From NCBI GenBank assembly GCA_034435375.1, contig DAOTXR010000037.1:76280-140279 (forward strand): a stretch of 64,000 nucleotides of DNA, in the 5' to 3' direction. Made by a program: the position numbers and the translations under genes. The first letter of the stretch is position 1. The number at the start of each line of letters is the position of its first letter. This DNA is from Anaerolineae bacterium. GTDB taxonomy: Bacteria; Chloroflexota; Anaerolineae; Aggregatilineales; UBA3940. Under the pieces are notes generated by a model. It ran no database searches and was not told the origin of the DNA. It was given only the letters and a program-made list of their open reading frames with translations. Shown here one piece after another: positions 9,061 through 26,677 of the stretch.

Positions 9061-9089
9061 TGGCTGTGTCCAGGCCACATGTTACAATC
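9061..9089 (+). promoter_or_regulatory. Candidate promoter for the glycan-assembly operon
   Basis: TTGGCT (9061-9066), a 17-nt spacer, then TACAAT (9084-9089). It is about 55 nt upstream of the first GT gene. Confidence 0.4.
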
Positions 9090-9142: not shown

Positions 9143-10507
9143 GTGAGCCACGCACACAATGCCCAGCCATCTGCCATTCTGACAATTGAGGCTGCCAGCC
9201 CCGGCGGTGTTCCGGCGCTGGTCGATGTCGTTGGCAGGTTGATGCGCAAATGGGGCTATGCGCCTACAGTTTATCGCGCCGAGTTTGCCACAGGGGATCT
9301 GACACTGCTGGAGCGTCTGGCCATCACAGTTCGTCGTTGGATACCTCGCTTGGTTGACGAACGCGGTCTGCCAACCGTGCTCGTCCCGGCCCCGCCGTTG
9401 CCCCTATGGCTTTTTTACGTTGTACCACACTTCCTTTTCGGTCGATTGTTGGGACAACACCGGGCGATTTTTGTCGTGTCAGGGAGTGCCCATGTTGCGC
9501 TACCGCTGGCATTGCGCGGGATTCCCTACATCTTATGGATTGCCACCACCTATCAGGACGAGTTGGAGGCCAAGGCCGCCGCAGGCGACCACTGGGCGGA
9601 GCGAGTGCTGGCCAGCCCTACCTGGCGACTTCTGGATGCCCAGGAGAGATTGGCGTTGCGATGTGCACATCGTGTGTTGGCTCTGAGCTACCACACGGCG
9701 GAGCGCATTAAGACCATGACAGCGGATACTGTCAACTATGTCGAAACGGTGCTGTTTCCCATCGACACGACGCGCTACCGGCCCAACCCTGCGGTGCGCG
9801 CCAGCAGCCCCTACGGCGAATACCTGTTGCTTGCTGCGCGGATTAACGATCCACGGAAAAATGTAGGTCTCCTGTTGGAGGCTTTCGCACAGGTTCATAC
9901 CCAGCTTCCTGGCCTGCGGCTGATGCTTGTCGGTGAGGAACCAGGCCCGCTGCTGATCGACCGGGTGGCTGCGCTGGGTCTGGAAGACGCGGTCATCTTT
10001 AGGGGCATTGTCTCGGCTGACGAGCTGCTGCTCCTCTATCAGGGCGCACAGCTTTTCGTGCTACCCTCCACGCAGGAAGGACTGGGGATCGTAGTGCTGG
10101 AGGCCATGGCCTGCGGCACACCAGTCGTAGCGACCCGTTGCGGAGGGCCAGAGGGGATCGTGATCGACGGCGAAACTGGCAGGCTGGTATCCGACTTTCG
10201 CGATCCTACCCCCCTGGCGCGGGCAATGCTTGACCTGCTGAGTAACCCAGACCAGCTTGAACAAATGCGTCAGCGGTGCGTGGAATTTGCTCTCAGTCAT
10301 TTTAGCTTTCCAACTGTGGCAGAGCAGCTACGTGCAGCCTACGAAGATGTGCGGGCTGCACCGCCACGTCCTATTCCCCTGCGGGAATGGCTGTCTGCCA
10401 TCTGGGCTGCTCTGGTGTTCGTCATCTACATGCAGCATCAGATGATCATCCACTGGCCTTCGATCCAGGCGAAGCTGCTCGTGCCACTCCTGAACGCGAT
10501 CCGATGA
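9143..10507 (+). CDS. Glycosyltransferase, GT-B fold (GT4-like) with a C-terminal hydrophobic tail
   Basis: The GT4 C-terminal signature EGLGIVVLEAMACGTPVVATRCGGPEGIV..GETG is present. The tail is WLSAIWAALVFVIY. The GTG start is as in the track. Confidence 0.85.
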   Translation: MSHAHNAQPSAILTIEAASPGGVPALVDVVGRLMRKWGYAPTVYRAEFATGDLTLLERLAITVRRWIPRLVDERGLPTVLVPAPPLPLWLFYVVPHFLFGRLLGQHRAIFVVSGSAHVALPLALRGIPYILWIATTYQDELEAKAAAGDHWAERVLASPTWRLLDAQERLALRCAHRVLALSYHTAERIKTMTADTVNYVETVLFPIDTTRYRPNPAVRASSPYGEYLLLAARINDPRKNVGLLLEAFAQVHTQLPGLRLMLVGEEPGPLLIDRVAALGLEDAVIFRGIVSADELLLLYQGAQLFVLPSTQEGLGIVVLEAMACGTPVVATRCGGPEGIVIDGETGRLVSDFRDPTPLARAMLDLLSNPDQLEQMRQRCVEFALSHFSFPTVAEQLRAAYEDVRAAPPRPIPLREWLSAIWAALVFVIYMQHQMIIHWPSIQAKLLVPLLNAIR

Positions 10508-12411
10508 TCGATTTATGGGTTGACCTGGCTGTCGCCGCGCTGATGCTGGCGGCGATCTACGGTGTGGGCCGCGCCATATGGCAGCTGGTGAAACTGCCGA
10601 TGTGGTGCCGCACCGCCGACCTGGCCTACGCTCTTGCTTTGGGGCTAGGCGCGATCTTGACGTTGCTGTTTGGCCTGGCGTTGGTCGGCTGGTTGCGCCC
10701 ACTGGCTGGCTGGTCTCTCATCGTCATTGGCGTGATTCTGGCTGCGCTCCAGTATCGCCAACTTCTGACCGACTTGACCGCCGCCTGGGGCGTCGCACGT
10801 CGGATGCTCACTACATCATGGTTTGTCAAAGTGGCGATGCTAATTACAGCAGCGTTTGTGCTGACGAACTTGGTTGGCAACCTTGCACCTCCGGTCGAAG
10901 GCGACACGGTGCACCAGTACTTGCTGGTGCCTCGTTACTGGGTAACCGAAGGGCGCTACGTGCAGCCGTCTCACATCTGGGCATCAACGCTGCCAGGCCA
11001 TATGATGATGCTCTCAGCATGGGCGCTGCTGCTGCGTGGAAGCTATAGCTTGGCCACGCTGGTCACCGGGCTGAGCATGAGTCTGCTGTTGGCGCTGGCT
11101 GTCTTTGCCTTGACCCGTCTGTACTTCGGGCGGGGGGTCGCGGCGTTGGCAGCGATGGCAATCTACACCATGCCCGATGCGGGTTACCTGGCCCAGTCCG
11201 CCAAGGTTGATATGGGCTGGGCCTTTTTCGAGACACTGGCATTGGCGGCCTTCTTCCGCTGGCTGGATCAGAGTGGAGCAAGCAGGGACGGTAAACTAGC
11301 GAAACCCCACCCAGAGCGCTGGCTGATCCTGGCCGGGGTATGCTTGGGGCTAGCTGCTGCGTCCAAGAATCAGACGGCGATCAGTGTGGCGCTACTGGGC
11401 CTGTGGCTCGTGCTGCGGCAGGCGCTGCGAGGCGAGTGGCGCAGCATGCTGCGGGCTGTGCTGGCTTTTGGCCTGGCAACGTTGATAGTAGCACTGCCCT
11501 ACTATCTGTACAACGGGATCGTCCACCACAACCCATTTTACCCGGTCTTTGCCGACCTGTTCACCAGACTGTTGGCAGCAACTCCTTCCCCACGCAGCGA
11601 GCTGGGCACCGAGATATTTTATCCGTGGACTGTAGGAGGATATCTCGCTAACCTGTGGAACTCATCGCTTGGGCACACCCGACCTGGTTTCTATCTAGGT
11701 TTTATTGCCGGGCCAGTCTTCCTGCTCACCATCCCTATTGGCGTTGGGCTGGGCTTGCTTCGTGGGGAGTATCCCGCGTGGCGAATGCTGGCTTACGCGC
11801 TTGCGTTCTCAGTAGTGTGGTTCCTGGTCAAGCAGGCAGTAAGACACTTTCTGCCAGGGCTGGTGCTGATGGCCTCTGTGGCCGGATTGGTTCTGTGGCG
11901 GCTCACCCAACGCCAGACCTGGCCACGGCGCATCGTGCTGGGTGTGACAGTCCTGTCGTTGGGCTGGAACCTGGTGAGCCAGTTAGGCGTGCTATACTGG
12001 AATGGCGCATATCGGGTGGCGCTTGGCCTGGAGAGTCGCGACGAGTATCTGCTCCGCTGGCACAACGAAGTGATCATCCCCATCTTCCCAGACTGGGAAA
12101 CCATTAGGGCGCTGAACGAGCTGCCCCCCTCCACGCGCGTCTTGGCCGAGCACGCAACCAGCCCACTCTATATAGAGCTGGACCTTGTTTCTGGCAATTG
12201 GGGGGATCGTGAAAATTTGGATGGGATTGCGGATCCGAAGGTGCTGATCGATAAGCTTGAGGCGCAACATATCGACTACATTCTGGTATACAATGCCGAT
12301 CCGGACGAGACTCGGCTATTTACCCGGCCAGACTTCCTGGCTGCGTATGGTACGCTGGTGTACGAGGGAGAACGGGCACGGTTGTATCGCATTGCAGAGC
12401 CGGAGAGGTGA
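10504..12411 (+). CDS. Polytopic membrane protein, putative GT-C fold glycosyltransferase (ArnT/PMT, GT39/GT83-like)
   Basis: It has about 12 or more predicted TM helices and an acidic first external loop (PPVEGDTVHQY). A soluble C-terminal domain of about 130 aa follows. ATG 10504 overlaps the upstream stop (ATGA). The track's 10387 extension lies inside the upstream gene. Confidence 0.65.
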   Translation: MIDLWVDLAVAALMLAAIYGVGRAIWQLVKLPMWCRTADLAYALALGLGAILTLLFGLALVGWLRPLAGWSLIVIGVILAALQYRQLLTDLTAAWGVARRMLTTSWFVKVAMLITAAFVLTNLVGNLAPPVEGDTVHQYLLVPRYWVTEGRYVQPSHIWASTLPGHMMMLSAWALLLRGSYSLATLVTGLSMSLLLALAVFALTRLYFGRGVAALAAMAIYTMPDAGYLAQSAKVDMGWAFFETLALAAFFRWLDQSGASRDGKLAKPHPERWLILAGVCLGLAAASKNQTAISVALLGLWLVLRQALRGEWRSMLRAVLAFGLATLIVALPYYLYNGIVHHNPFYPVFADLFTRLLAATPSPRSELGTEIFYPWTVGGYLANLWNSSLGHTRPGFYLGFIAGPVFLLTIPIGVGLGLLRGEYPAWRMLAYALAFSVVWFLVKQAVRHFLPGLVLMASVAGLVLWRLTQRQTWPRRIVLGVTVLSLGWNLVSQLGVLYWNGAYRVALGLESRDEYLLRWHNEVIIPIFPDWETIRALNELPPSTRVLAEHATSPLYIELDLVSGNWGDRENLDGIADPKVLIDKLEAQHIDYILVYNADPDETRLFTRPDFLAAYGTLVYEGERARLYRIAEPER

Positions 12412-12417
12412 TGGGCT

Positions 12418-14298
12418 ATGTGTGGTATCTGGGGAGCTGTCAACGTCGCAGACGAACAGGCCGCCGAGGCCGCCGCTTGTGCCATGCGCCATCGTGGCCC
12501 AGATGACCATGGCATATTCGTGGCCCACGAGCCGGTGCCAGTGTCGTTAGCTAACACTCGGCTGGCGATCATCGACCTCTCGCCAGGCGGGCATCAGCCG
12601 ATGGCGGCTGAGGATGGGCGCTACTGGATTGTCTACAATGGCGAGGTGTACAACTACCAGCCGCTGCGTCAAGTGCTGCAAGGCGCTGGTCATCGGTTCT
12701 CCTCAGACAGTGACACCGAAGTGATCCTGCACGCTTACATCGAGTGGGGCGAGAAGTGCCTGGAACACCTGCGCGGCATGTTTGCCTTAGCCATCTGGGA
12801 TGTTGTGGAGGGCAAGCTGTTCGCTGCTCGTGACCGGCTGGGCATCAAACCGCTGTACTACGCTCAAGCAGGTGATGGGGAAGCGCGGTTTGCGTTTGCC
12901 TCGGAGCTTAAGGCCCTGATTGCCAGCGGCATGGTCGAACCGCGCCTCAATCTTGCAGCGTTGCATCATTACCTCTCGTTCTACTCTGTTCCATCGCCGT
13001 ACACCATCCTGGCAGGCGTCGAGGCGCTGCCGCCGGGCCACTATTTGACTTACCAGGGCGGGCAACTGAAGATCACCCAGTATTGGGCGTTGCCACCCGC
13101 TGAGCCCCTTGGCATGAGCGAGGACGAGATCGTGGCGAAGCTGCGGGAGTTGCTGGAAGAGTCAATCCGGCTGCGGATGATCGCCGATGTGCCAGTGGGA
13201 GCCTTCCTATCAGGGGGCATCGACTCAAGCGCTGTGGTAGCCCTGATGACCCGTGCCACCGGGGACCGACTGCGCACGTTCTCGATCGGCTTTGGCAACG
13301 AAGGGCGGAAGATCGACGAGCGCTCCCATGCACGGCTGCTGGCCGATTACTACGACACTGAGCACACTGAGGTGATCGTTACCGGCCAGCAGGTGCGCAA
13401 CGAGTTAGAAGCGATCATCCGGGCTATGGATCAGCCTTCAGGCGACGGGTTGAATACCTACCTGGTGTCGCAGGCCACAGCCAAACACGTCAAGGTGGCG
13501 CTGTCGGGCCTGGGGGGAGATGAACTCTTCGCCGGGTATCCCCAATTTAGAATGTTTCGGCAGGCCGATCAAGCGGGTAAGGTTTGGCACAGGCTGCCAG
13601 GTGTGGCAAGACAGGGGGTGCGTGGAAGCGCCTCCGTGGTAGGGACCGCGCGACGTGCAATCACCTGGTTGGATGGTGGTCTGCTCGAACGTTATGAACG
13701 TGTGCGCATTCTGTTCGACGAGCAGAGCAAGCAGGCGCTTTACACACCGGACACGGCAGCAGCTATGGCTGATCTCCAGCCTTCGTTAGATTACCTGGAG
13801 CGCTTTGTCCATCCAGCAGAGACGGACAGCGTCGTCCAGCTTACGCGGCTGGAGCTGCTCAACTATATGGCGCACACCCTGCTGCGCGACACTGACGCCA
13901 TGAGCATGGCTCACTCGTTAGAGGTGCGTGTTCCGCTGATCGACCACAAGCTGGTCGAGTTTGCAGTGCGTATCCCGTCGCCAATGAAGCTGCACGGGCG
14001 ACGTGGCAAGTGGGTTTTCGCCCAGGCGCTGGCCGATGTGCTGCCCCGTGAGACGCTGGCGCGACCCAAGCGGGGCTTTGAGATGCCGATGGCGACCTGG
14101 ATGCGCCATGAGTTACAAGATGTACTCAACGATGTCTTCTCATCGCGGTCAGTGGCCCAGCGTGGCCTGTTCAACATCGAGGCCGTCAGCACCATTTACC
14201 GTCACTTTCGAGAGGGTCGTGGCCCCTATGTGCGGGTCTGGGCACTGGCTGCGCTTGAGCTGTGGATGAGGCAGTTTATCGACGGAGACGGCCTGTAA
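12418..14298 (+). CDS. Asparagine synthase-type glutamine amidotransferase (canonical; WbpS-like role plausible)
   Basis: The N terminus is MCGIWG, giving Cys1 after Met removal. Other motifs are HRGPD, TRLAIIDLSPGGHQP, YNGEVYNY, SDSDTEV and the PP-loop FLSGGIDSS. Confidence 0.9.
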   Translation: MCGIWGAVNVADEQAAEAAACAMRHRGPDDHGIFVAHEPVPVSLANTRLAIIDLSPGGHQPMAAEDGRYWIVYNGEVYNYQPLRQVLQGAGHRFSSDSDTEVILHAYIEWGEKCLEHLRGMFALAIWDVVEGKLFAARDRLGIKPLYYAQAGDGEARFAFASELKALIASGMVEPRLNLAALHHYLSFYSVPSPYTILAGVEALPPGHYLTYQGGQLKITQYWALPPAEPLGMSEDEIVAKLRELLEESIRLRMIADVPVGAFLSGGIDSSAVVALMTRATGDRLRTFSIGFGNEGRKIDERSHARLLADYYDTEHTEVIVTGQQVRNELEAIIRAMDQPSGDGLNTYLVSQATAKHVKVALSGLGGDELFAGYPQFRMFRQADQAGKVWHRLPGVARQGVRGSASVVGTARRAITWLDGGLLERYERVRILFDEQSKQALYTPDTAAAMADLQPSLDYLERFVHPAETDSVVQLTRLELLNYMAHTLLRDTDAMSMAHSLEVRVPLIDHKLVEFAVRIPSPMKLHGRRGKWVFAQALADVLPRETLARPKRGFEMPMATWMRHELQDVLNDVFSSRSVAQRGLFNIEAVSTIYRHFREGRGPYVRVWALAALELWMRQFIDGDGL

Positions 14299-15228
14299 AT
14301 GCCAGAAACTGGGCATCCGCTGGTCAGCATTATCGTACCTACCTATAACGAGGAAGCTGACATCGCACGCACAATGGACGCACTCGCAGCGCTAACCTAC
14401 CATCCGCTGGAGGTCGTGGTTGTTGATGCGTCCACCGATCGCACGCCGGAGATCGTCCAGAGCTTCTCGGATCGCATCCCCAACCTGAGGCTGATCCGGC
14501 AGAGGCCCAAACCCGGCGTGTCGGTGGCACGCAACGATGGGCTGCGAGAGGCGAAGGGCGAGATCGTCGTCATCCTCAATGCAGACGTGTTCCCCGACAC
14601 GGATTTTGTCAATCGGATCATGGCCCACTATGAGCAGGGAGCTGACTACGTGCTGGTCGACTCCCAGGTGACAAATGTGGAGCACCTGTTTCCACGCTAC
14701 ATTCAGGCGCAGCACCGCTACGAACAGCTACACAACCCAACTGTGGCCGACTGGACTGAGGGCTATTCCTGCCGACGGGAGGCCGCACTCTCCGTAGGGG
14801 GGTTCCCAGAGGAGTTTGGGCGTAACACTGCGGGTGAGGACGGCATCTTCGCTGAGCGGATGCGCAGCCGCTACCGACGGGCAGTAGATTTTTCGATCGT
14901 TGTGCCACATGTCGCTCCAGCCAGCTTCCGAGAGTATTGGCGCCAAAGGTTGGGGCGCGGGCGCGGCGGAGCCTATCGCCTGTATGCCTACGAAAGACGG
15001 CCAATGCGTTGGGGAGCAATTGCGCAGTCAGTTCTGGGAACATGGTTCCTGGCAGCAATTCTGGTTCCGGCGCTGATCCATGCCTGGCGCATTTCACCGT
15101 ACTCGCCGCGAGGCAGGCGCGACTGGCTGCCTCTGGTGTGGGCACGTCTGATCGAGATGGTCGCTGGCGCTGCGGGATATGGGGATGGCTGCCTGGAGAT
15201 CGCACGGCTGGGCCTGAACAAACCATGA
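14299..15228 (+). CDS. Glycosyltransferase family 2 with C-terminal TM helices
   Basis: The GT-A motifs VSIIVPTYNEE..VVVVDASTD..ILNADV are present. The start codon abuts the upstream stop. Confidence 0.88.
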   Translation: MPETGHPLVSIIVPTYNEEADIARTMDALAALTYHPLEVVVVDASTDRTPEIVQSFSDRIPNLRLIRQRPKPGVSVARNDGLREAKGEIVVILNADVFPDTDFVNRIMAHYEQGADYVLVDSQVTNVEHLFPRYIQAQHRYEQLHNPTVADWTEGYSCRREAALSVGGFPEEFGRNTAGEDGIFAERMRSRYRRAVDFSIVVPHVAPASFREYWRQRLGRGRGGAYRLYAYERRPMRWGAIAQSVLGTWFLAAILVPALIHAWRISPYSPRGRRDWLPLVWARLIEMVAGAAGYGDGCLEIARLGLNKP

Positions 15229-16448
15229 GACGCATCCTGTACATTCACCACGGAGGAGAGATCGGCGGCGCACCGCTGAGCCTGCTGTACCTACTGCGGT
15301 ACCTGGACCGCTCCCGCTACGAACCGGTGGTCGTGGCTCTCAAACCGGGGCCTGTAGTTGACCTATACCGGACAGAAGGCATTGAGGTCATCATCGAGAC
15401 GGGGATCAGCGACTTCAGCCACACTACGCTAGAGTGGTATGGCGGGCGCAACTTGTGGCGGCTACCTGGCAAAGTCGCCACCTTCTGGCCATCAGTCCAA
15501 CGCACACGGGAGGTAATCCGCCGCCTGAAGCCAGATTTGGTACACTTGAACTCATCGACGCTGGTTCCCTCGGCCATCGCCTGCAGGCGGGAAGGGATAC
15601 CGGTTGTATGGCACATTCGCGAACCGTTGACCCAGGGCTACCTGGGCCTACGGCGGGCCTGGCTCCGCTCCGTGATTGACCGCACGGCAACCCGCGTGAT
15701 CGCCATTTGCCAGAACGACGCCGACCAGTTGCGCCCCAGTGACCGGATACGTGTGATTTACAATTTTGTGCACTTTGCCCAGTTTGATCGAACCCTGACA
15801 GGCGATGCCTTTCGGGCAGAACATGGCATTCCGCCAGAGTCGCCAGTGGTCACCATGCTGGGAGGTATCTCCGAGCCTAAGGGGACCTTGGTGCTGATCC
15901 GTGCGCTGCCCGACCTGGTAGCCGCGATCCCCACCGTAAAGGTGGTCATTGCGGGACCGCTCCCCCAACCGCCTGGTGATCGCAACTTGAAGAGGCTAGT
16001 CAAATGGCTGTTGGCTGCTGATGCCTACGAGAGAGAAGTGCGCCGTGCTATTGACAGACTCGACAGACAAGTTCGCGCAGCGCTGATCTTCACTGGCGTG
16101 CGGCGCGACATCCCTCAGGTGTTGGCTGCTACGACCTGCCTGGTGTTTCCCTCGGTGGTGCCACACTTTGCCCGGCCCATCATCGAAGCCGCAGCGATGG
16201 CAGTGCCATGTGTGGCATCTGATCTGGGTGGTCCAAGAGAGCTGGTAGTGCATGGCAAGACAGGTATATTGGTACCTCCGGGCGACGCTGGCGCGTTGGC
16301 TGCTGGCCTCTCCAGTGTGTTGCGCGACCAGCAGCATGCTCGCGCTATGGGTCAGACAGCCTATGAACGCGCGCGGCAGATGTTCGACGCCCATACCAAC
16401 GCGGCTGCCACTGTGGCTGTGTATGACGAAATGAGCAACGCTGATTAG
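15225..16448 (+). CDS. Glycosyltransferase, GT-B fold (GT4-like)
   Basis: It begins MRRILYIHHGGEIGGAP, and the C-terminal region has FARPIIEAAAMAVPCVASDLGGPRELV..GKTG. ATG 15225 overlaps the upstream TGA. The track's 14937 extension overlaps the GT2 gene in another frame. Confidence 0.88.
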   Translation: MRRILYIHHGGEIGGAPLSLLYLLRYLDRSRYEPVVVALKPGPVVDLYRTEGIEVIIETGISDFSHTTLEWYGGRNLWRLPGKVATFWPSVQRTREVIRRLKPDLVHLNSSTLVPSAIACRREGIPVVWHIREPLTQGYLGLRRAWLRSVIDRTATRVIAICQNDADQLRPSDRIRVIYNFVHFAQFDRTLTGDAFRAEHGIPPESPVVTMLGGISEPKGTLVLIRALPDLVAAIPTVKVVIAGPLPQPPGDRNLKRLVKWLLAADAYEREVRRAIDRLDRQVRAALIFTGVRRDIPQVLAATTCLVFPSVVPHFARPIIEAAAMAVPCVASDLGGPRELVVHGKTGILVPPGDAGALAAGLSSVLRDQQHARAMGQTAYERARQMFDAHTNAAATVAVYDEMSNAD

Positions 16449-16622
16449 GATCTCTACTAACACCGATGGCAACACGCAAGCAGGTAGGCTAGAAGCTGCA
16501 GATGGATCAAGCGTCGATGATGCCTGAGCCGCGAACCGGGGCAGGTGCAACCGAGCAGTACGTGGTAAACTTGAGAGCAAAACGTCAGGGATTTGGTACA
16601 ACTGGGAAACAGCGATTCAGCG

Positions 16623-18902: not shown

Positions 18903-18967
18903 GTAGTGTTAGGGCAGCTCGGTGGCGCCACTTTTGAACACCGGGGATTCGGACAACACAACAGGAC

Positions 18968-21133
18968 ATGAAACAGGTTTTCTTCGACGGCAAGGGAAAA
19001 CTGCTGGTGCAAGACGTACCCGCGCCGAAAGCGCCGTACAACGGTGCACTGGTGCGGGTGTGCACGTCGTTGATTTCCAGCGGCACTGAGATGGCCGCAG
19101 CCTCTGGCGGTGGTAGCTTGATCCGCAAGGCTCTATCGCAGCCACAACTCATCCGGCGGGCTTTTGAGGTGGCTGTGAGCCAGGGCTTGCGCTTCACAGC
19201 CAGGCAGGTGCAGGACATTGCCGGGACATGGTTCCCGGTGGGCTACAGCGCAGCGGGCGTGATCGTCGAGATAGGGCAGGGGCTGGAAGGGTTGCAAATC
19301 GGCGACAGCGTGGCCTGTGCAGGGGCAGGATTCGCCAATCATGCCGAGTACGACGCAGTGCCTCTCAACCTGATGGCCCACATCCCGGAGGGTGTCAGCT
19401 GCCGACAGGCGGCTTTCACGACGGTGGGCGCAATCGCGCTGCAGGGTGTACGGCGTGCTGAAGCGATGTTGGGCGAGACAGTAGTGGTGGTTGGTCTGGG
19501 GCTGATTGGGCAGATTGTGTGCCAGCTCCTTGATGCCGCAGGCTGTGTCGTAATCGGCTCGGACCCCGTCGCAGCACGGCGTGAGCTGGCCGCGCGGCTG
19601 GCAGGCGCGCAAACGATCGATCCCACAGCAGGCGATGCCTCTCGGCAGGTGTTGAAGCTGACTGGCGGGATCGGGGCCGACCGGGTGATCTTATGTGCGG
19701 CTACTCGCAGCAGCCAAGCAACCAATGAAGCGTTTAGGATGTGCCGTGAGCGCGGGCGTGTGGTCATGGTGGGCGCTATGGGGATGGACCTGGAACGCAC
19801 CGATTTTTACAACCGCGAGCTGGACTTTGTGATCTCGCGTTCGACGGGACCGGGCCGTTATGACCGCAACTACGAGGAGCGTGGCATTGACTACCCCATC
19901 GGTTATGTGCGCTGGACGGAGCAGCGCAACATGGGGGCCTTCCTGCGCCTGATTGCTGACGGCAAGCTCGACGTGGACTCACTGATTTCGGCTGAATACC
20001 CAGTTCAGGAGGCGGATCGGGCCTACCAGGCTGTGCAACAGGGTGCGCTGGCTGTGCTGTTGAACTATGGCGAACCTGCTACTGTCGAAGACCCTGCTCG
20101 GCGGCGGGCCGTGACACGGGTGGCTGCGCCCAGAGCCGGGAGGATCGGTGTGGCATTGGTAGGGGCAGGGAACTTTGCTCGGGCAGTGCACCTGCCTAAT
20201 TTGAAGGCCAGCCCCTATTTCGAGGTTCAGGCAGTTGTCAGCGACAGCATCACAGCGGCACAGGCGGCACAGAAGATCGCCGCGCCACTGGCGACGACAG
20301 ACCTGGTGCTGGCGTTGGACCATCCAGGCGTCGAGGCCGTGGTAATCGCTACCCGGCACCATCTGCACGCCCGCCAGGCCATCCTGGCAGCCGAGTCAGG
20401 CAAACATGTGTTGGTCGAGAAACCAATGGCGCTGACCCTTTCTGATTGTCGGGCGATGATCGACGCAGCGCAAAAGGCGGGCGTGTTGCTGACGGTGGAC
20501 TTCAACCGGAGACTGTCCCCAGCCGCCATAGCGCTCAAGCAGGCGCTTGATGAAGTGAGGAGTCCTAAAACAATCGTGTATCGCATCAACGCTGGCCCGT
20601 TGCCAGCATCGCACTGGCTGAACGACCCGGCAGAAGGCGGCGGACGGTTGCTGGGGGAGGGTGTACACTTCATCGATTTCGTCTGCGGGATGCTGAACGC
20701 CGAGCCGCTGGCCGTCAGCGCCCAGGGCAGTTCTGACGGTCAGGACTTCGTACTGACGATGCGTTTCCCTGGCGACTCAGTGGGGGTGGTGATCTACACG
20801 GCTCAAGGCGATCCGACTTTCCCTAAAGAGCGAGTGGAGACCTTCGCCGGGGGTGGAGTGGCTGTGATCGATGATTTCAGGACTTTGACGTTCAGTAAGC
20901 TGCGGGGACGAGCATTCAGGGGCGCGCCAGACAAAGGGCATCGGGCATTGCTCGACAACTTTGGAGCAGCGATCCGCGGCAAGTCCGAGCTGCTCGTTAC
21001 TGGCGCTGACGGTCTACGGGCGACGCGCATCGGGTTGGCAGCGCTGGAGAGCATCCGAACGGGCGCGACGGTTATGCTGGACGGATGGCCTGACAAGGCT
21101 AGCCCACCCCGGCAGGACAGTGACAAAGGATGA
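18968..21133 (+). CDS. Bi-domain oxidoreductase: N-terminal zinc-type alcohol dehydrogenase (MDR) fused to a C-terminal Gfo/Idh/MocA oxidoreductase
   Basis: The N-terminal half is MDR-like, with Rossmann motif VVVVGLGLIGQ. The C-terminal half begins IGVALVGAGNFA with ..VLVEKP.., which is Gfo/Idh/MocA-like. Length is 721 aa. Confidence 0.85.
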   Translation: MKQVFFDGKGKLLVQDVPAPKAPYNGALVRVCTSLISSGTEMAAASGGGSLIRKALSQPQLIRRAFEVAVSQGLRFTARQVQDIAGTWFPVGYSAAGVIVEIGQGLEGLQIGDSVACAGAGFANHAEYDAVPLNLMAHIPEGVSCRQAAFTTVGAIALQGVRRAEAMLGETVVVVGLGLIGQIVCQLLDAAGCVVIGSDPVAARRELAARLAGAQTIDPTAGDASRQVLKLTGGIGADRVILCAATRSSQATNEAFRMCRERGRVVMVGAMGMDLERTDFYNRELDFVISRSTGPGRYDRNYEERGIDYPIGYVRWTEQRNMGAFLRLIADGKLDVDSLISAEYPVQEADRAYQAVQQGALAVLLNYGEPATVEDPARRRAVTRVAAPRAGRIGVALVGAGNFARAVHLPNLKASPYFEVQAVVSDSITAAQAAQKIAAPLATTDLVLALDHPGVEAVVIATRHHLHARQAILAAESGKHVLVEKPMALTLSDCRAMIDAAQKAGVLLTVDFNRRLSPAAIALKQALDEVRSPKTIVYRINAGPLPASHWLNDPAEGGGRLLGEGVHFIDFVCGMLNAEPLAVSAQGSSDGQDFVLTMRFPGDSVGVVIYTAQGDPTFPKERVETFAGGGVAVIDDFRTLTFSKLRGRAFRGAPDKGHRALLDNFGAAIRGKSELLVTGADGLRATRIGLAALESIRTGATVMLDGWPDKASPPRQDSDKG

Positions 21134-22347
21134 TGACATCTCCAGCCGTCCACCGCCCGGCGCCAGTGACTGGCCAGGATTTTGTGATCCTCTCGACGCA
21201 GGATTGGGACTGCCTGCCAACCCGCAAGCAGCGCTTTGCTCGGTGGTGGGCGCAGGCTGGCAACCGTGTGCTGTATGTCGAGCAGCAGATGCACCTGGCC
21301 GGCTGGTTGGCCGAGATTGGCAAGCACTTCAGCCGGGCCTGGCGCTGGCTGGAAGGCCCACGCCAAGTGGAACCTAACCTGTGGGTTTTCACGTTGCCGG
21401 TGGTGTTGCCTTTCTTCCAGATGTCAGGGCTGGTAAACCGACTCAACAACGCCGTTTTGCTGCCGATATTAAGAGCACAGACCCGCAGGCTGGGATTTTG
21501 CAGTCCAGTGTTGTGGACTTACACCCCGCACTCAGCAGATTTTGTGGGGAGGCTGGGTGAAAAGGCTGATGTCTATGAATGTGTGGATGATTTCACCGCT
21601 GCCCAGGGGTTGGTCAACGCGCGCGTGATCGCGCGACTGGAGCGGCAGCTCATCGAAGCAGTGGACCTGCTGATCACTACTCACCCAGCGCTGCACGAGA
21701 CCCGTTCAGCATGGGCTCGACGGGCATTGATGGTGCCCAATGGGGCCGATGCGGACCATTTTGCACGTGCCGCCGACCCCGATCTTCCGGCGGCAGGGGC
21801 TGTGGCCAGTCTTAAGCATCCCATTATCGGATACCTGGGGGCCATCAACTACTGGATCGACACAGCCCTGCTGGCATATATGGCTCGAAAGCATCCCGAC
21901 TGGACAATCGTGCTGGTGGGGCCGCAGGTGCTGCTGGCTGACATGGAACCGCTTAAAGGTTTGCCAAACGTGGTGCTGACTGGGCGTGTGCCCTATGAAG
22001 AAGTGCCATCCTACGTAAAAGCCTTCGATGTGTGCGTCAATCCCTATGTGTTGGATGCGGTCGCCGAGCATTGCAGTCCGCTCAAGCTCTACGAGTATCT
22101 AGCGACTGGCAAGCCAACGGTCTCGGTGGATATGCCTGAGGCACACCGGTTCGAAGGGCTGATCGATATTGCACGCGATGCCGACGAATTTGTACAACTG
22201 GTCGAGATGGCAGTGGAGGCGCTGACGAATGGCAGCGCTGACAACCGCGCAGCGCAGCGCATGGCCGAGGCGCAGCATCACACCTGGCGCAGCCGCTTTC
22301 ACGAGGTCTCGATGGCGCTTGCAGAAGTGTTAGGAACGAAGGCATGA
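21130..22347 (+). CDS. Glycosyltransferase, GT-B fold (GT1/GT4-like)
   Basis: Length is 405 aa. The C-terminal region has FDVCVNPY..SPLKLYEYLATGKPTVS, typical of GT-B nucleotide-sugar binding. ATGA overlap with the upstream gene. Confidence 0.8.
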   Translation: MMTSPAVHRPAPVTGQDFVILSTQDWDCLPTRKQRFARWWAQAGNRVLYVEQQMHLAGWLAEIGKHFSRAWRWLEGPRQVEPNLWVFTLPVVLPFFQMSGLVNRLNNAVLLPILRAQTRRLGFCSPVLWTYTPHSADFVGRLGEKADVYECVDDFTAAQGLVNARVIARLERQLIEAVDLLITTHPALHETRSAWARRALMVPNGADADHFARAADPDLPAAGAVASLKHPIIGYLGAINYWIDTALLAYMARKHPDWTIVLVGPQVLLADMEPLKGLPNVVLTGRVPYEEVPSYVKAFDVCVNPYVLDAVAEHCSPLKLYEYLATGKPTVSVDMPEAHRFEGLIDIARDADEFVQLVEMAVEALTNGSADNRAAQRMAEAQHHTWRSRFHEVSMALAEVLGTKA

Positions 22348-23147
22348 CCGCATCCCGGCGAGCAGTTGCCGTATTTGATGATGAGAACTCCACCGAGCGC
22401 CCTGAGCCACGCCTACTTGTGATCATTCTGGCCTACAATGAGGAGGACAGCCTGGGTAAGGTGCTGCGCAGCGTGCGCAACGCGGTGCCCTTGGCCGACA
22501 TTGTGGTGATCGATGACGGATCAACGGACGCTACGGCGCAGGTTGCCGAGGGATACGGGGCAGCGGTGCTGCGTCTGCCATACAATCTGGGGATTGGCGC
22601 TGCCGAGCAGACCGGGTTCATGTATGCCCGCGATGCCCGTTATGATGTGGTCGTGCGGGTCGACGGCGATGGACAACATGATCCAGATGAAATCCGGGAT
22701 TTGTTGAATGCACTGGAACAGTCTGATGCCGATGTTGTAGTTGGGTCGCGCTATCTGGAAGACCGGGGGTACATCACCCCCTGGCAGCGACGCATAGGGA
22801 TCGTCATCCTGGCATCGATTATCTCGGCCATTATCAGGCAGCGCATCACCGATCCTACCTCGGGTTTCCGTGCGCTGAACCGGCGGGCCATCGACTTCTG
22901 CGCAACCGATTATCCTTTTGATTATCCAGAGCCAGAGTCGCTTGTGACCTTCCGGCGGGCCGGTCTGCGTATCCACGAGATCCCTGTCACTATGAACCCC
23001 CGATACGGCGGCCAGTCTTCGATTACCCCAGTGCGCTCGGCTTACTACATGGTCAAGGTGATCATGGCAGTCTTGATCGGTCTGCTACGTACAAGGCCGC
23101 GCGTAGTAGAGGAGGTGCAAGTTGTCCATCAACATCTCGCGAACTGA
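22344..23147 (+). CDS. GT2 polyprenyl-phosphate glycosyltransferase-like (GtrB/DPM1/ArnC-type)
   Basis: Motifs LVIILAYNEE, VVIDDGSTD, VDGDGQHDP, GSRY and TSGFRA are characteristic of polyprenol-phosphate sugar synthases. ATGA overlap with the upstream gene. Confidence 0.8.
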   Translation: MTASRRAVAVFDDENSTERPEPRLLVIILAYNEEDSLGKVLRSVRNAVPLADIVVIDDGSTDATAQVAEGYGAAVLRLPYNLGIGAAEQTGFMYARDARYDVVVRVDGDGQHDPDEIRDLLNALEQSDADVVVGSRYLEDRGYITPWQRRIGIVILASIISAIIRQRITDPTSGFRALNRRAIDFCATDYPFDYPEPESLVTFRRAGLRIHEIPVTMNPRYGGQSSITPVRSAYYMVKVIMAVLIGLLRTRPRVVEEVQVVHQHLAN

Positions 23148-23520
23148 GCTGCTGATGATCGCTGGCCCGGTGCTGATGTTTGTGATTGTGCTGGAGCTAG
23201 TGCGACGTCGTCATCTGCGTGAGGACTACTCTTTGCTGTGGCTGGGAACATTTGTAGTGCTGGTGATGCTCTCGCTTCTGCGTACTTCGCTGCTCAACGT
23301 TGTAGCCCGTCTGATGGGCATCCAGTACCCACCCACTGCCCTGTTTGTGATCGGCTTTGGGCTGCTGTTGTTGGTGATGCTCCAGTTTTCGATGGTCATC
23401 ACACGGCTGTCACGCCAGAGCCAGCAGGCAGCTCAGCACATTGCGTTGCTGAGCATGCGTGTGCGCGATCTGGAGCGCCAGCTTGAATCACGCAGCAGCA
23501 CAATGACATCGGAGCTGTAG
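23122..23520 (+). CDS. DUF2304-type small membrane protein (usual partner of the preceding GT2)
   Basis: Length is 132 aa. It shows hydrophobic helices, an RRRHLREDYSLLWL motif and a C-terminal coiled-coil-like tail. TTG 23122 is preceded by GAGGAGG at 6-nt spacing and overlaps the GT2 3' end. Confidence 0.75.
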   Translation: MSINISRTELLMIAGPVLMFVIVLELVRRRHLREDYSLLWLGTFVVLVMLSLLRTSLLNVVARLMGIQYPPTALFVIGFGLLLLVMLQFSMVITRLSRQSQQAAQHIALLSMRVRDLERQLESRSSTMTSEL

Positions 23521-23535
23521 ACCGGGTATGGAATC

Positions 23536-24666
23536 ATGCGTGTCGTCCACGTGAGCAAAGTAACCGGCATTGCCGGCTCAGAGGGACATCTCTTGACGCT
23601 GCTACCGGGACTAGCTGGACGCAAAATCGAGGTCTCCATGATGGTGCTCGAAGACCCCCGTCGCCCAGCGAAGTCGTTCTGTCGTGAGATGGCTGCCCGT
23701 GGGGTGCCAGTCGAGTGTGTCCCGATCGAGGGTCACCTGGATGTCAGGCTGTTCAGGCGGTTGGCGGATCGATGGCGGGCGCTCACACCTGACCTGGTGC
23801 ACACGCACCTGCTGCACGCCGACCTCTACGGTCTACCCTCGGCACGCTGGGCTGGTGTGCGATGCGCTGTCTCATCACGCCACAACGACAACCCATTCCG
23901 ACGCAACCCGGTCATCCGCCTGGTCAATCAGTGGGCCATGCGCTACGCTGACCGCGTGATCGCAATCTCTCACGCGCTGGCTGCTTTTGTGAGCGAAGTG
24001 GAGCGCCTTGATCGCGAGCAGGTCGTGACGATCCATTACGGATTCGCTCCACCAGAGTATCCATCCGATGCACGCGAACAGGCGCGTGCTGCTCTAGGTT
24101 ACCGGCCCGACGAACCAGTGATAGGGCTGTTTGGACGGCTGATCCGTCAGAAGGGCGTTGACGTGCTGCTGGAAGCCTTTGCGCATGTTCTAGAACGTGT
24201 CACGGCAGCACGGTTGCTGATTGTAGGCGACGGCGTGCTGCGCACCAGCTTGGAGGCCCAAGCGAGGTCGCTAGGGCTGGCTCAATCTGTCACTTTTGCT
24301 GGATGGATAGAGCAGGCATACCGACTGATGCCTGCTTGCGATATGATAGTCATGCCTTCACGCTGGGAGGGGTTCGGGCTGGTGGCGTTGGAAGCTATGG
24401 GATGCGCTCGCCCAGTCATTGCTAGCCGAGTGAGTGCTCTGCCCGAGATCATCCTTAATGGCGAGACCGGGCTACTCGTCCCGCCGGAAGACTCGAAGAG
24501 CCTGGCCCAAGCCATTTTGAGCCTGCTAAGCGATCCGGACCGCGCCGCAGCGCTGGGACGAGCCGGTCATGAGCGTCTGGTTAGGGAATTCTCGGTTGAA
24601 AAGATGGTGCAGGCCACAGTTGACCTCTACACCCAGGTCCTGCACTCGCCACAGGAGGCAGGCTGA
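23536..24666 (+). CDS. Glycosyltransferase, GT-B fold (GT4)
   Basis: It begins MRVVHVSKVTGIAGSEGHLL. The C-terminal region has SRWEGFGLVALEAMGCARPVIASRVSALPEII..GETG. Confidence 0.88.
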   Translation: MRVVHVSKVTGIAGSEGHLLTLLPGLAGRKIEVSMMVLEDPRRPAKSFCREMAARGVPVECVPIEGHLDVRLFRRLADRWRALTPDLVHTHLLHADLYGLPSARWAGVRCAVSSRHNDNPFRRNPVIRLVNQWAMRYADRVIAISHALAAFVSEVERLDREQVVTIHYGFAPPEYPSDAREQARAALGYRPDEPVIGLFGRLIRQKGVDVLLEAFAHVLERVTAARLLIVGDGVLRTSLEAQARSLGLAQSVTFAGWIEQAYRLMPACDMIVMPSRWEGFGLVALEAMGCARPVIASRVSALPEIILNGETGLLVPPEDSKSLAQAILSLLSDPDRAAALGRAGHERLVREFSVEKMVQATVDLYTQVLHSPQEAG

Positions 24667-24668
24667 GA

Positions 24669-26591
24669 ATGTCGGGCATCTGTGGGCTGCTGGGGCTGAG
24701 AGGACAGCCACCCGATGATACCGTCTTAGCTGCAATGGCAGAAGCCATGCATTACGGGTCGGGTGGTGCACGAACAGCCATCAACGGCCCCTGCGGACTG
24801 GGCTTTGCCTGGCAGGGCCCCCCTGACCTCGGCAGCGCTGTCCAACCCCTACGCGCCTCGCACGCCATGCTCCGTTTGCCTGACGCCGTACACACCGAAG
24901 TGTGGGGAGTCCACAGCGGGCGCATCTACAATTACCTTGAGATTCGAAAGGCGCTGGAGGCCACCGGGCACCGCTTTGCCACTGATACCGACACTGAGAC
25001 CTTGCTGCGTTCATATCTCCAGTTCGGTCCTACCAACTTCATCAAAGCCTTTCGCGGGATGTTTTCGCTGGCCATCTGGGATCTGCAACATCAGCGGCTC
25101 TTACTGCTACGTGATCGTCTGGGGTTGAGACCGCTTTACTATGCGCTGTCTGAGGATTGGCTCGTGTTCGGGTCGGAGATCAGAGCGCTGCTGGCCTGTC
25201 CAGCGGTGCCCAGGCGACTGAATGAAGCCTTCGTCCCGCACTATCTCGCCTATGGTTACCCGCCGTCACCGGAGACTCTCTTCGAGGGCATCCGGGCTGT
25301 GCCGCCGGGTTATATGCTCACCGTCGAATTGGGCGGGACCCGCCCAACCTTCCAGCTCGATGCTTATTGGTATCCGCCGTATCCATTCAGCGGACCTGAT
25401 CCGCGTGGTGAGGACAATATCTGCAATGACCTCCTGGCTCACCTGCGTTGGGCTGTCCGTTTGCGCATGGACAAAGACAAACCAATGGGCGCATTTCTGT
25501 CCGGCGGACTTGACTCAGCAGCAGTGGTGGCGTTGATGGCTCAGGAGAGTAGTCGGACGATCCAGACGTTTTCCTTTGGGTTCGAAGGTCGTTACTCGTT
25601 TGAAGACACACGCTATGCACGGCAGATCGCCGCACGCTTTGTGACCGATCACCACGAGTTGGTGATCGAACCGGAACTGGAGACTTTGCTGAGTGAGCTG
25701 ATCCTGGCCTATGACCAGCCGTTTGGCAACGCGGCGGCCATCCCCGTCTACTTGATCAGCCGGGAGGCCCGTCAGCACGTTCCTGTGGTGCTGACCGGCG
25801 ACGGCGGCGACGAGCTGTTCGCAGGATATCCCCACTTCCGCACCGCGCGGCTGGCGCGCAGCTACAACCAGCTTCCGGACGTGGCGCAGCGTGCCGTTGA
25901 AGGACTGCTCGATCGGCTGCCCGAGGCGGTGGCCTTTGGAGGGTTTATGCAGCAGGCCAATCACATCGTGCGGGCAGCCCACCTGCCGCTAGCCGAGCGC
26001 TACTTGAGCTGGGTGCGCTGCGTGCCGGATGTGTGGCTGACAGCCCTGATGGGTGGACAGCGTGAGCAGGCCGTGCAAGAACATTACCGGTCGCTGTTTA
26101 CAGTGCCCCAGGGCGGTGAGGAGCCTGATGTCATTGCCCAATTGCTAGACGTAAACCTGCGTACCTACCTGCCCGGCGACCTGCTGACCCGGCTGGATCG
26201 CTGCGGCGCGGCTGCCGCGCTTGAGGTTCGGCTCCCATTTCTGGATCACCAGTTCCTGCATTTCGTGGCGACTATCCCGTCGAGCCTCAAGCTGCGGAGG
26301 GGCACACCTAAGTATGTCCTCAGGCAGGCCTTGCGAGGCGTTTTGCCCGATGCAGTGATCGACCGCAAGCAGCGCAGCCCGGAGGTTCCAGTGGACGAGT
26401 GGTTCCGGGGCCAGCTCATGGGCTACGCACGGTCGGTTCTGCTGGGCAAACAGGCCGCACAGCGCGGTTTATTCGATATGGAAGCAGTACGCGCCATGCT
26501 TGATGCCCATCTCGCCGAGCAGGCCGACCTGGGTTATGCGCTGTGGGCGTTGCTGACCTTCGAGTTGTGGATGCAACTTTACCTCGATTGA
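24669..26591 (+). CDS. Asparagine synthase-like amidotransferase paralog with a divergent N-terminal glutaminase domain
   Basis: The synthetase PP-loop is intact (FLSGGLDSAA). The N terminus reads MSGICG, so Cys is not at position 2. The canonical HRGPD, RLxIxD and NGE(I/V)YN motifs are replaced by HYGSGG, GFAWQG and SGRIYN. Confidence 0.85.
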   Translation: MSGICGLLGLRGQPPDDTVLAAMAEAMHYGSGGARTAINGPCGLGFAWQGPPDLGSAVQPLRASHAMLRLPDAVHTEVWGVHSGRIYNYLEIRKALEATGHRFATDTDTETLLRSYLQFGPTNFIKAFRGMFSLAIWDLQHQRLLLLRDRLGLRPLYYALSEDWLVFGSEIRALLACPAVPRRLNEAFVPHYLAYGYPPSPETLFEGIRAVPPGYMLTVELGGTRPTFQLDAYWYPPYPFSGPDPRGEDNICNDLLAHLRWAVRLRMDKDKPMGAFLSGGLDSAAVVALMAQESSRTIQTFSFGFEGRYSFEDTRYARQIAARFVTDHHELVIEPELETLLSELILAYDQPFGNAAAIPVYLISREARQHVPVVLTGDGGDELFAGYPHFRTARLARSYNQLPDVAQRAVEGLLDRLPEAVAFGGFMQQANHIVRAAHLPLAERYLSWVRCVPDVWLTALMGGQREQAVQEHYRSLFTVPQGGEEPDVIAQLLDVNLRTYLPGDLLTRLDRCGAAAALEVRLPFLDHQFLHFVATIPSSLKLRRGTPKYVLRQALRGVLPDAVIDRKQRSPEVPVDEWFRGQLMGYARSVLLGKQAAQRGLFDMEAVRAMLDAHLAEQADLGYALWALLTFELWMQLYLD

Positions 26592-26677
26592 CCACACAAC
26601 CTGCTGGAACTTCATAGTCCTGTTGGGCGTCTCTTCAATAAGATGTGGATTTCCAGTTTGAAGGGAGGAAAATCGCT

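Follow-up and report, generated by a model that had tools for sequence, protein, structure and literature searches.

How can an operon that appears devoted to glycan assembly serve its purpose when it encodes no recognisable initiating transferase, flippase, polymerase or exporter? The question is raised by positions 9143–26591 of a 64,000-nucleotide (nt) stretch of contig DAOTXR010000037.1 from an Anaerolineae bacterium (hereafter, the window), for which an original prediction, made from the sequence alone, proposed an export logic different from the known paradigms. We find that the tight 12-gene glycan-assembly operon is real and that its modules are all of known kinds. On balance, we regard the locus as probably a rearranged, shortened copy of a conserved Anaerolineae glycan-assembly operon that combines three known kinds of module.

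The operon comprises 12 open reading frames on the + strand rather than the 13 originally counted, a figure at odds with that count's own inventory, which also sums to 12; the gene junctions quoted at the time were all correct when the coordinates were rechecked. Four-nucleotide ATGA-type overlaps occur at 10504/10507, 15225/15228, 21130/21133 and 22344/22347, and a 26-nt overlap occurs at 23122/23147, where the downstream gene begins with a TTG codon preceded by GGAGG 7 nt upstream. The gaps measure 6 nt (12411/12418) and 0 nt (14298/14299), and elsewhere 144 nt (16448/16593, before the gene for a heparinase II/III-like protein), 65 nt (after that gene), 15 nt and 2 nt. Pfam and NCBIfam bore out the predicted domain content of four GT4 glycosyltransferases of the GT-B fold, two GT2 glycosyltransferases, one GT-C enzyme, a DUF2304 protein, two AsnB-type amidotransferases, the heparinase-like protein and a bi-domain oxidoreductase. 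Only the GT-C enzyme and the DUF2304 protein are polytopic membrane proteins.

The reported absences also held. With thresholds of E ≤ 0.01 (0.1 for GT-C), no Wzx, Wzy, Wzz, ABC-2, Bac_transf or Glycos_transf_4 domain was detected among the 12 proteins, and the Wzx, Wzy and Wzz/polysaccharide co-polymerase families (PF01943/PF13440, PF04932 and PF02706) had no matches in the locus of the window or in those of its relatives. Neither an ABC-2 permease (Wzm) nor its ATPase (Wzt) is present in the locus; the nearest ATP-binding cassette protein is an MsbA/PglK-like half-transporter with ABC_membrane and ABC_tran domains (37982–39955, − strand), 11 kb away and beyond an arginine biosynthesis operon. 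There is no processive multi-transmembrane GT2 synthase: the two GT2 enzymes, of 267 and 309 amino acids (aa), show no more than one or two weak hydrophobic segments. Nor are the gaps between the genes large enough to hide an unannotated flippase. The only priming enzyme noted originally, a truncated transferase at 63597–64000 on the − strand, is indeed the C-terminal part of a Bac_transf polyprenyl-phosphate sugar-1-phosphate transferase (PF02397, E = 1e-42). The full gene encodes 474 aa and is preceded by a single GT4 gene, with unrelated housekeeping genes beyond; this unlinked enzyme is a candidate primer only by default.

Do these absences belong to the pathway or to this genome? Look-ups and a genome scan turned up the locus in no fewer than nine further Anaerolineae genomes, in which gene order is kept at 40–78% protein identity. 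The shared core runs GT4a, the 635-aa GT-C, AsnB1, the 309-aa GT2, GT4b, the heparinase-like protein, the bi-domain oxidoreductase, GT4c, the 267-aa GT2, DUF2304, a PMT_2 GT-C of 448–468 aa, GT4d and AsnB2, of which the two GT-C genes, AsnB1 and the 309-aa GT2 are variable. The second, PMT_2-type GT-C lies directly after DUF2304 in five of the relative loci. One relative (L004/L013) is without AsnB1 and the 309-aa GT2, L018 is without AsnB2 and L007 without the 635-aa GT-C; the amidotransferases are therefore accessory among the relatives. Downstream of AsnB2, all nine relatives carry a tail made up of a short-chain dehydrogenase/reductase-type epimerase (best NCBIfam model TviC, a uridine diphosphate (UDP)-N-acetylglucosaminuronate 4-epimerase), a fifth GT4, a WecA-like primer of family PF00953 and a GT-C-like polytopic protein of ~800 aa; in L018 this tail starts directly after GT4d. 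The WecA-type primer is thus the third gene after AsnB2 in syntenic relatives, and a response regulator and a class A penicillin-binding protein (PBP) usually come after the tail.

None of the four tail genes lies within the window, and neither a WecA-type primer nor a flippase nor the tail was found in the contig flanks (~9 kb on the left side of the window and 10 kb on its right). The PMT_2 GT-C and an epimerase encoded upstream in the relatives are also missing from the window. A Logan contig from an independent assembly shows the same junction between AsnB2 and the following gene, which encodes a vWA-domain lipoprotein. The gene for a 996-aa class A PBP has its 5′ part at window positions 15–527 on the − strand and continues to the left of the window (L026, 6714–9704). 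In at least six relatives its orthologue immediately follows the glycan locus; here, by contrast, the gene is inverted and lies ~8.6 kb upstream, which indicates a rearrangement in this genome; the inverted PBP marks the rearrangement that removed the primer-containing tail. Since nine syntenic relatives keep the primer within the locus, we attribute its absence to local truncation, and the lack of an initiating transferase is, to judge from these relatives, a peculiarity of this genome and not of the pathway. No Anaerolineae copy of the locus contains a flippase, polymerase or ABC exporter. A genome scan with the ~800-aa tail protein returned seven Anaerolineae loci, none from the source metagenome-assembled genome (MAG), and a metagenome scan with AsnB2 returned only distant AsnB paralogues (≤39% identity) without heparinase-like, bi-domain, DUF2304, GT-C or primer neighbours. 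Two neighbouring genes were considered as members of the conserved locus and rejected: the upstream NAD epimerase (6720–7694, − strand) gave no tblastn match to the epimerase of the relatives' loci and is best matched by an HpnA-like NCBIfam model, and the vWA/YfbK-type lipoprotein (26645–28252) is absent after AsnB2 in all relatives.

The two amidotransferases differ in the state of their catalytic residues. AsnB1 (12418–14298, + strand; 626 aa) has an intact N-terminal cysteine (MCGIWG), and matches Asn_synthase at 313 bits together with GATase_7. AsnB2 (24669–26591, + strand; 640 aa), which is 37% identical to AsnB1, matches Asn_synthase at 316 bits and has a weaker GATase match that begins at residue 76. 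The glutaminase nucleophile of AsnB2 is lost: the protein starts MSGICG, with TCG as codon 2, where MCGICG is found in 56 of the 120 homologues listed, and its HRGPDD motif has become HYGSGG (within 24669–24790). An identical protein is encoded in an independent assembly. A homologue 57% identical to AsnB2 (P0214) is similarly degenerate (MAGICG...HRGSPGGG), which suggests a sub-lineage in which this amidotransferase would no longer hydrolyse glutamine. Because the catalytic cysteine is lost, AsnB2 would be either ammonia-dependent or impaired. For both proteins the closest specialised NCBIfam model is TIGR03108, the amidotransferase of XrtA/PEP-CTERM exopolysaccharide (EPS) systems, below its cutoff in each case (516 bits for AsnB1). 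In Helicobacter pullorum, genetic work showed that a WbpS homologue is needed to convert N-acetylhexosaminuronic acid (HexNAcA) to its amide, HexNAcAN (PMC6025236). Like the WbpS-type enzymes of Pseudomonas aeruginosa O6 and H. pullorum, the enzymes of the window combine class-II glutaminase and Asn_synthase domains and are encoded within a glycan locus; AsnB1 shows these features fully and AsnB2 in part (Cys2 to Ser), a likeness at the level of class.

These losses could also be read as decay, such that the locus would no longer make its ancestral glycan now that the primer, two GT-C genes, two epimerases, a GT4 and the AsnB2 nucleophile are gone. The missing tail genes of nine relatives, the missing PMT_2 GT-C and upstream epimerase, and the Cys2-to-Ser change and degenerate HRGPDD motif of AsnB2 all fit such a remnant. 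However, all 12 open reading frames are intact and full-length relative to their orthologues, translation is still coupled by ATGA overlaps, and gene content varies among the relatives anyway, which makes modular gain and loss normal for this locus. In addition, a stand-alone pair of a GT4 gene and the Bac_transf primer gene lies 37 kb away. We therefore consider decay unlikely and retain the reading of a shortened copy of the conserved operon.

The locus also contains a module that the original prediction had not recognised. The 267-aa GT2 (22344–23147, + strand) is of the polyprenyl-phosphate glycosyltransferase class, resembling GacI, PpgS and DPM1. Its best NCBIfam models are PpgS (106.6 bits versus a cutoff of 370), AglJ and dolichyl-phosphate hexose transferase, and its best PDB matches are the Pyrococcus dolichyl-phosphate mannose synthase (5mlz, E = 1e-15), ArnC and GtrB. 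The best-matching proteins all load a sugar onto polyprenyl monophosphate, an assignment that holds at the level of class only, as all NCBIfam scores are below the equivalog cutoffs. The enzyme is, as expected, unrelated to the Ralstonia priming transferase. Its stop codon is overlapped by the start of the next gene (23122–23520, + strand), which encodes a 132-aa DUF2304 protein (PF10066, 73.4 bits versus a cutoff of 25.5), a short membrane protein that has three transmembrane (TM) segments and is akin to GacJ and Rv3632. In Streptococcus pyogenes, the DUF2304 protein GacJ associates with GacI in a complex, lowers its Km for undecaprenyl phosphate and raises its Vmax, and a GT-C enzyme, GacL, then moves the sugar onto the wall polysaccharide; in Mycobacterium tuberculosis, Rv3632 stimulates PpgS (bioRxiv 10.1101/180810). 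As judged from sequence, the 267-aa GT2 and the DUF2304 protein are the known GacI/GacJ (PpgS/Rv3632) polyprenyl-phosphate-sugar synthase pair.

The putative acceptor-side partner of this pair is the 635-aa polytopic protein encoded at 10504–12411 (+ strand). Pfam alone leaves its nature open (PMT_2, E = 6e-4, below the curated cutoff). An AlphaFold model built with 39 homologues has a mean predicted local distance difference test score (pLDDT) of 92.8 and a predicted template modelling score (pTM) of 0.93, and in a Foldseek search against the PDB every match at E ≤ 0.001 is a GT-C enzyme, the first being ArnT (5f15, E = 2e-9). Further neighbours include AglB/STT3/PglB, ALG9/12, AftA/AftB, Pmt1/2/4, PimE and EmbB, and a sequence profile of the family matches ArnT at E = 1e-8. 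GT-C enzymes carry an acidic motif in their first loop. Across the 39 homologues Asp134 is invariant and Glu132 nearly invariant; both lie just after the helix of residues 106–126, a position that fits this motif. The structure and the profile match together bear out the initial description of the protein as GT-C-like, of the ArnT/PMT type. The possibility that it is a standard Wzy polymerase or a WaaL/O-antigen ligase was examined by the same structure prediction and structure search and was rejected, as there was no Pfam match to these families and no Wzy or WaaL among the PDB neighbours. By its family, the GT-C enzyme would act on the acceptor side, at the membrane's outer face, with a polyprenyl-phosphate sugar as donor.

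We found ~70 orthologues of the 635-aa protein, and all the named ones are from Anaerolineae or Chloroflexi; MAGs of these groups are likewise the origin of the named orthologues of the window's proteins in general. The locus of one metagenomic relative (L005, 10001–16781) contains an orthologue outside the operon context, 46% identical by BLASTP and 47% by tblastn; its neighbours are a GDSL lipase, a Polysacc_synt (Wzx) gene two genes downstream of the GT-C gene, and a protein with an ALGX domain. This neighbourhood indicates that the family can associate with a Wzx flippase.

The operon therefore holds a full trio of donor synthase, activator and GT-C transferase, with activities predicted from the characterised homologous systems. 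As in the GacI/GacJ/GacL and PpgS/Rv3632 systems, a GT2 of the polyprenyl-phosphate class is directly followed by a DUF2304 protein with three TM segments, and a GT-C transferase is encoded within the same locus. Unlike those systems, the locus has no GacK/Wzx-like or GtrA-like flippase: no Polysacc_synt or GtrA-like protein that could flip a polyprenyl-phosphate sugar was found among the 12 proteins, and there is no spare coding space. The GT-C gene is not beside the pair, and its family is so far known only from Anaerolineae MAGs. The backbone here is neither polyrhamnose nor arabinogalactan, in contrast to these precedents, and the GT2 scores far below the PpgS equivalog cutoff. Because the pair is present and would feed the GT-C enzyme, one lipid-carrier-charging step is encoded within the locus, which weakens the argument for a new export logic.

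Whether this trio decorates the polymer built by the other enzymes is a separate question. The GT-C enzyme and the GT2/DUF2304 pair might instead glycosylate a protein, for example of an S-layer or sheath in the manner of PMT enzymes, or a lipid in the manner of ArnT, so that the locus would serve two products. In line with this idea, ArnT, the closest solved relative, modifies lipid A, and the Pfam matches are to the PMT and PMT_2 families, which include protein O-mannosyltransferases. The GT-C gene is, however, translationally coupled inside the operon of GT4 and AsnB genes and its orthologues keep that position; moreover, the acceptor in the characterised systems of GT2, DUF2304 and GT-C is a wall polysaccharide, and no candidate acceptor protein is encoded nearby. 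On this evidence, we judge two separate products to be improbable and prefer a single decorated glycan.

The remaining module concerns the remodelling of sugars. The heparinase II/III-like protein (16593–18902, + strand; 769 aa) contains Hepar_II_III_N and Hepar_II_III_C domains and has no hydrophobic N-terminus at any candidate start, in agreement with its earlier description as signal-less and with a cytoplasmic location. Its AlphaFold model (pLDDT 90.5) has the uronate-lyase fold, and the first 37 of its PDB neighbours are, without exception, uronate-polysaccharide lyases (heparinase III, E = 1e-25, and members of polysaccharide lyase (PL) families PL17, PL15, PL33, PL21 and PL8). Residues conserved across 50 diverse homologues comprise Asn249-His250, Tyr303-His304, His508/His510/Asp512, Asp528, His550-Asn551 and Arg608. 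The protein thus shares with the lyases (heparinase III of PL12, PL15, PL17, PL21 and PL33) both Pfam domains, the (α/α)-toroid plus β-sandwich fold and the conserved Asn-His, Tyr-His and His-x-His-x-Asp residues, yet it differs from them in having no secretion signal, in being encoded inside a biosynthetic glycosyltransferase operon and in its low identity to the solved lyases (17–19%). The context is not that of a catabolic lyase, as homologues are also found within biosynthetic loci for EPS and capsular polysaccharide. The family is large: at E ≤ 1e-30 it numbers 3,947 representatives when each 50%-identity cluster counts once. Apparent fusions in gene calls join the heparinase-like domain to Polysacc_synt (Wzx), to a GT4 and a methyltransferase, or to a methyltransferase alone (P0466, P0459 and P0323), tying the family to glycan assembly on the cytoplasmic face. 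Lyases and C5-epimerases share a proton-abstraction step. We infer from the modelled fold that the heparinase-like protein acts at C5 of a uronic acid, by epimerase or lyase chemistry, on the cytoplasmic side during assembly. The soluble proteins AglQ and Agl32 act as uronate epimerases in archaeal N-glycan assembly (PMC3827465, PMC12624080), a functional precedent by analogy only, since they belong to a different fold family.

Directly downstream, the bi-domain oxidoreductase (18968–21133, + strand; 721 aa) joins a Rossmann domain of the medium-chain dehydrogenase/reductase, alcohol dehydrogenase type (ADH_zinc_N) to a Gfo/Idh/MocA domain (GFO_IDH_MocA), with GxGxxG/A motifs at residues 176 and 399. 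The PDB relatives of the Gfo/Idh/MocA half are sugar secondary-alcohol dehydrogenases, including WbpB, and the protein belongs to a very large family. The enzyme would carry out oxidation and reduction of a sugar ring, a chemistry that would suit inversion of a ring carbon via a keto intermediate.

The bi-domain and heparinase-like genes are neighbours well beyond the Anaerolineae. They are adjacent in annotated records of the Ralstonia EPS I locus and of Sphingobium, Streptomyces and Parabacteroides loci. In the EPS I operon of Ralstonia solanacearum (132 megaplasmids), the order is epsA/P/B-type genes, wecB, wecC, a transporter, an EpsG-family protein, a GT4, an acyltransferase, the bi-domain protein, the heparinase-like protein, a GT4, a primer, an acetyltransferase and an aminotransferase; EPS I contains galactosaminuronic acid (PMC3759889). 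The cassette is accompanied by wecB/wecC, Wza and Wzc in the Sphingobium EPS locus, by Wzx, Wzy and wecC/wecB in the Parabacteroides capsule locus, and by a primer, a nucleotide-sugar dehydrogenase, two Wzz-domain proteins, asnB and a protein with an O-antigen-ligase domain in Streptomyces. The heparinase-like gene also occurs without a bi-domain partner, in Deinococcus in the order primer, asnB, heparinase-like gene, dehydrogenase (UDP-glucose-dehydrogenase family) and GT4, and in Chondrinema beside a UDP-glucose-dehydrogenase-family gene among sulfotransferases; in Manganitrophus it is not beside such a gene. In six of the seven annotated loci from other phyla, then, a few genes at most separate a heparinase-like homologue from a nucleotide-sugar dehydrogenase, and asnB is also adjacent in two of them (Streptomyces and Deinococcus).

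Between the window and the Ralstonia, Sphingobium, Parabacteroides and Streptomyces loci, the likeness consists in a bi-domain protein (37–39% identity over 95–98% of its length) adjoining a heparinase-like protein with GT4 flanks. The order of the two genes is reversed in those loci, with the bi-domain gene first, and only the cassette of two or three genes is common. Those loci also have their own nucleotide-sugar dehydrogenase (wecB/wecC or other), primer, Wzx, Wzy and Wza/Wzc, none of which is present in the window's locus; no nucleotide-sugar dehydrogenase of the wecC type was found near the cassette in the window's locus or in the Anaerolineae relatives. A literature search on the combination of heparinase-like protein, AsnB and oxidoreductase returned nothing usable, the search being unable to match the term "II/III". 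The bi-domain and heparinase-like proteins may together epimerise a uronic acid: conversion of N-acetyl-D-mannosaminuronic acid (D-ManNAcA) to N-acetyl-L-galactosaminuronic acid (L-GalNAcA), for example, needs inversion at C3 and C5, and the galactosaminuronic acid of EPS I presumably has the L-configuration. Separately, the plasmid locus of Chondrinema litorale (L029, 2469–16135) encodes the heparinase-like protein, the UDP-glucose-dehydrogenase-family protein, several GT4 enzymes and four sulfotransferases, and it may encode a sulfated, glycosaminoglycan-like polysaccharide.

With these modules assigned, the idea of a pathway whose export and assembly logic lies outside the Wzx/Wzy, ABC and synthase paradigms can be weighed. 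None of the ~10 Anaerolineae versions of the locus has a Wzx, Wzy, Wzz or ABC-2 gene, and a complete locus can encode as many as three GT-C-like polytopic proteins with no relationship to one another, namely the 635-aa protein, the PMT_2 protein of 448–468 aa and the ~800-aa protein. The last follows the WecA-like primer in every complete locus (L011, 15161–17623; L012, 15097–17487; L013, 15113–17539), and has about 11 TM segments and a C-terminal domain of ~300 aa. BLAST finds no relationship between it and the GT-C proteins of 635 and 448 aa, and Pfam and NCBIfam leave it nearly unassigned, with only borderline PMT/TMEM260 matches and one match to the Leptospira LA_3751/LA_3752 family. In variants of the idea, GT-C-like polytopic proteins, especially those of the ~800-aa and 635-aa families, would perform translocation, polymerisation or both, or the glycan would be built mostly on the outside of the membrane from polyprenyl-phosphate sugars, as mycobacterial arabinan is. 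Translocation or polymerisation by such proteins, if true, would set the route of this envelope glycan apart from all three classical export paradigms. Complete Anaerolineae loci do resemble mycobacterial arabinogalactan and lipoarabinomannan assembly in pairing a WecA-like primer and a polyprenyl-phosphate sugar synthase with two or three GT-C-like proteins, and they adjoin a class A PBP, but the resemblance is one of overall logic, without orthology; the mycobacterial clusters include an ABC-2 exporter, and the copy in the window keeps one GT-C and no primer.

Against an export route of this kind, absence from a locus is weak evidence, as flippases are often unlinked; an MsbA/PglK-like half-transporter is encoded 11 kb away; the L005 orthologue of the GT-C enzyme stands two genes upstream of a Wzx gene; and the tailoring cassette operates in ordinary Wzx/Wzy/Wzc loci elsewhere, with one heparinase-like homologue fused to a Wzx domain. 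No GT-C enzyme is known to translocate a lipid-linked glycan. The step from missing genes to a new export logic is thus not supported, since relatives carry a WecA-type primer, the cassette sits in ordinary Wza/Wzc/Wzx/Wzy loci and a GacI/GacJ-type pair is present. We hold a pathway outside the three paradigms to be very unlikely, and its variants with GT-C-like translocases or extracellular assembly to be just as doubtful.

Based on these findings, we propose a plausible pathway for the shortened operon. First, a primer would charge polyprenyl phosphate; this enzyme is of the WecA type in the relatives' locus and would be unlinked in the present genome, for instance the Bac_transf enzyme 37 kb away. 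The four GT4 enzymes and the 309-aa GT2 would then, by their families, build an oligosaccharide in the cytoplasm on the polyprenyl-diphosphate carrier. The lyase-fold and bi-domain proteins would remodel a uronic acid, most likely by epimerisation through C5 proton abstraction and oxidation/reduction of a ring carbon, as their fold and gene context suggest, and the AsnB enzymes would turn uronate carboxyls into amides. Flipping and export would proceed via unlinked genes, as the locus holds no gene for this step. Finally, the 267-aa GT2 and the DUF2304 protein would load a sugar onto polyprenyl phosphate, and, after flipping, the GT-C enzyme would transfer it to the glycan at the membrane's outer face. 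A uronamide-containing heteropolysaccharide associated with the cell wall is the most likely product. This agrees with the original prediction of an amidated, uronate-containing envelope glycan, which is made plausible by the two AsnB proteins, the uronate-lyase fold, the dehydrogenase neighbours in six of seven loci and the TviC-like epimerase of the relatives. That relatives encode a class A PBP and a WecA-type primer close together hints at a wall-linked polymer.

Several points weigh against this proposal. A UDP-sugar 6-dehydrogenase is absent from this locus and from the relatives' loci, such that the uronate precursor is assumed and not seen, and with no flippase or exporter in any Anaerolineae copy, the appeal to unlinked genes is likewise an assumption. 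For the bi-domain/heparinase-like pair, no biochemical function was found in the literature for any organism. The GT-C acceptor may be a glycan, a lipid or a protein, and the lost tail and the lost AsnB2 nucleophile could mean that the pathway is altered or partly inactive here.

The enzymes that would build the backbone are of ordinary types. GT4a (9143–10507, + strand; 454 aa) is a cytoplasmic GT-B enzyme (Glyco_trans_1_4 and Glycos_transf_1, E ~2e-35) with 43–58% identity across the relatives. The 309-aa GT2 (14299–15228, + strand), of the ordinary non-processive type (Glycos_transf_2, E = 2e-29), has one weak hydrophobic segment, and its best NCBIfam models, EpsD, TuaG and AglG, are all below cutoff. 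GT4b (15225–16448, + strand; 407 aa), recognised by Pfam, travels with the heparinase-like and bi-domain genes, and the trio recurs in the relative locus L006 at 57%, 37% and 53% identity, respectively. GT4c (21130–22347, + strand; 405 aa; Glyco_trans_1_4) is TuaH-like (107 bits, below cutoff) and is 61–72% identical in relatives. GT4d (23536–24666, + strand; 376 aa; Pfam E = 8e-44) is best matched by the PEP-CTERM/XrtA EPS glycosyltransferase model "stp2" (172 bits, below cutoff). Matches to the Pfam family GT4-conflict were considered as a sign of a defence system and rejected as generic GT4 similarity. In the divergent intergenic region before the first gene, a promoter-like site (TTGGCT-17-TACAAT with an upstream TG; 9060–9088, + strand) may be present, although the scan for promoters and terminators gave site counts no higher than in shuffled sequence. 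An Rfam scan of the window gave 0 matches.

The surroundings of the operon are mixed. The vWA/YfbK-type lipoprotein gene has an LSSC lipobox-like signal and starts on the same strand 53 nt after the operon, and the only strong terminator-like hairpin of the region (28295–28328) lies after it; the vWA gene may therefore be co-transcribed with the operon. A pair of LiaF-like and PspC-domain membrane proteins of the cell-envelope stress type (28353–29787, − strand) separates the glycan operon from the arginine biosynthesis operon (30262–37905). Farther along are a gene for an 892-aa STAND-type NTPase (47298–49976, − strand; NB-ARC/AAA_16), regulator-like or defence-like, whose C-terminus carries TPR repeats and which weakly matches sigma-70 region 4, and two tandem deoxynucleoside kinase (dNK) genes (50133–51880, + strand), the first of them extended to 355 aa.

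As a claim about export, the locus matters little: local truncation accounts for the lack of a primer, and a flippase may be unlinked. What the analysis does define is a glycan locus that is conserved in Anaerolineae, whose cell envelope is poorly understood, and that can reach ~20 genes. The operon adds a new and still uncharacterised member to the class of polyprenol-linked glycan loci equipped with a decoration module of the GacI/GacJ/GacL type, and the WecA-type primer, the GacI/GacJ-type synthase, the several GT-C proteins and the adjoining class A PBP point to a wall-linked glycopolymer. The most useful lead is the very widespread, unstudied pair of bi-domain and heparinase-like proteins, which is also encoded in the EPS I virulence locus of R. 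solanacearum, beside the genes for UDP-ManNAcA.

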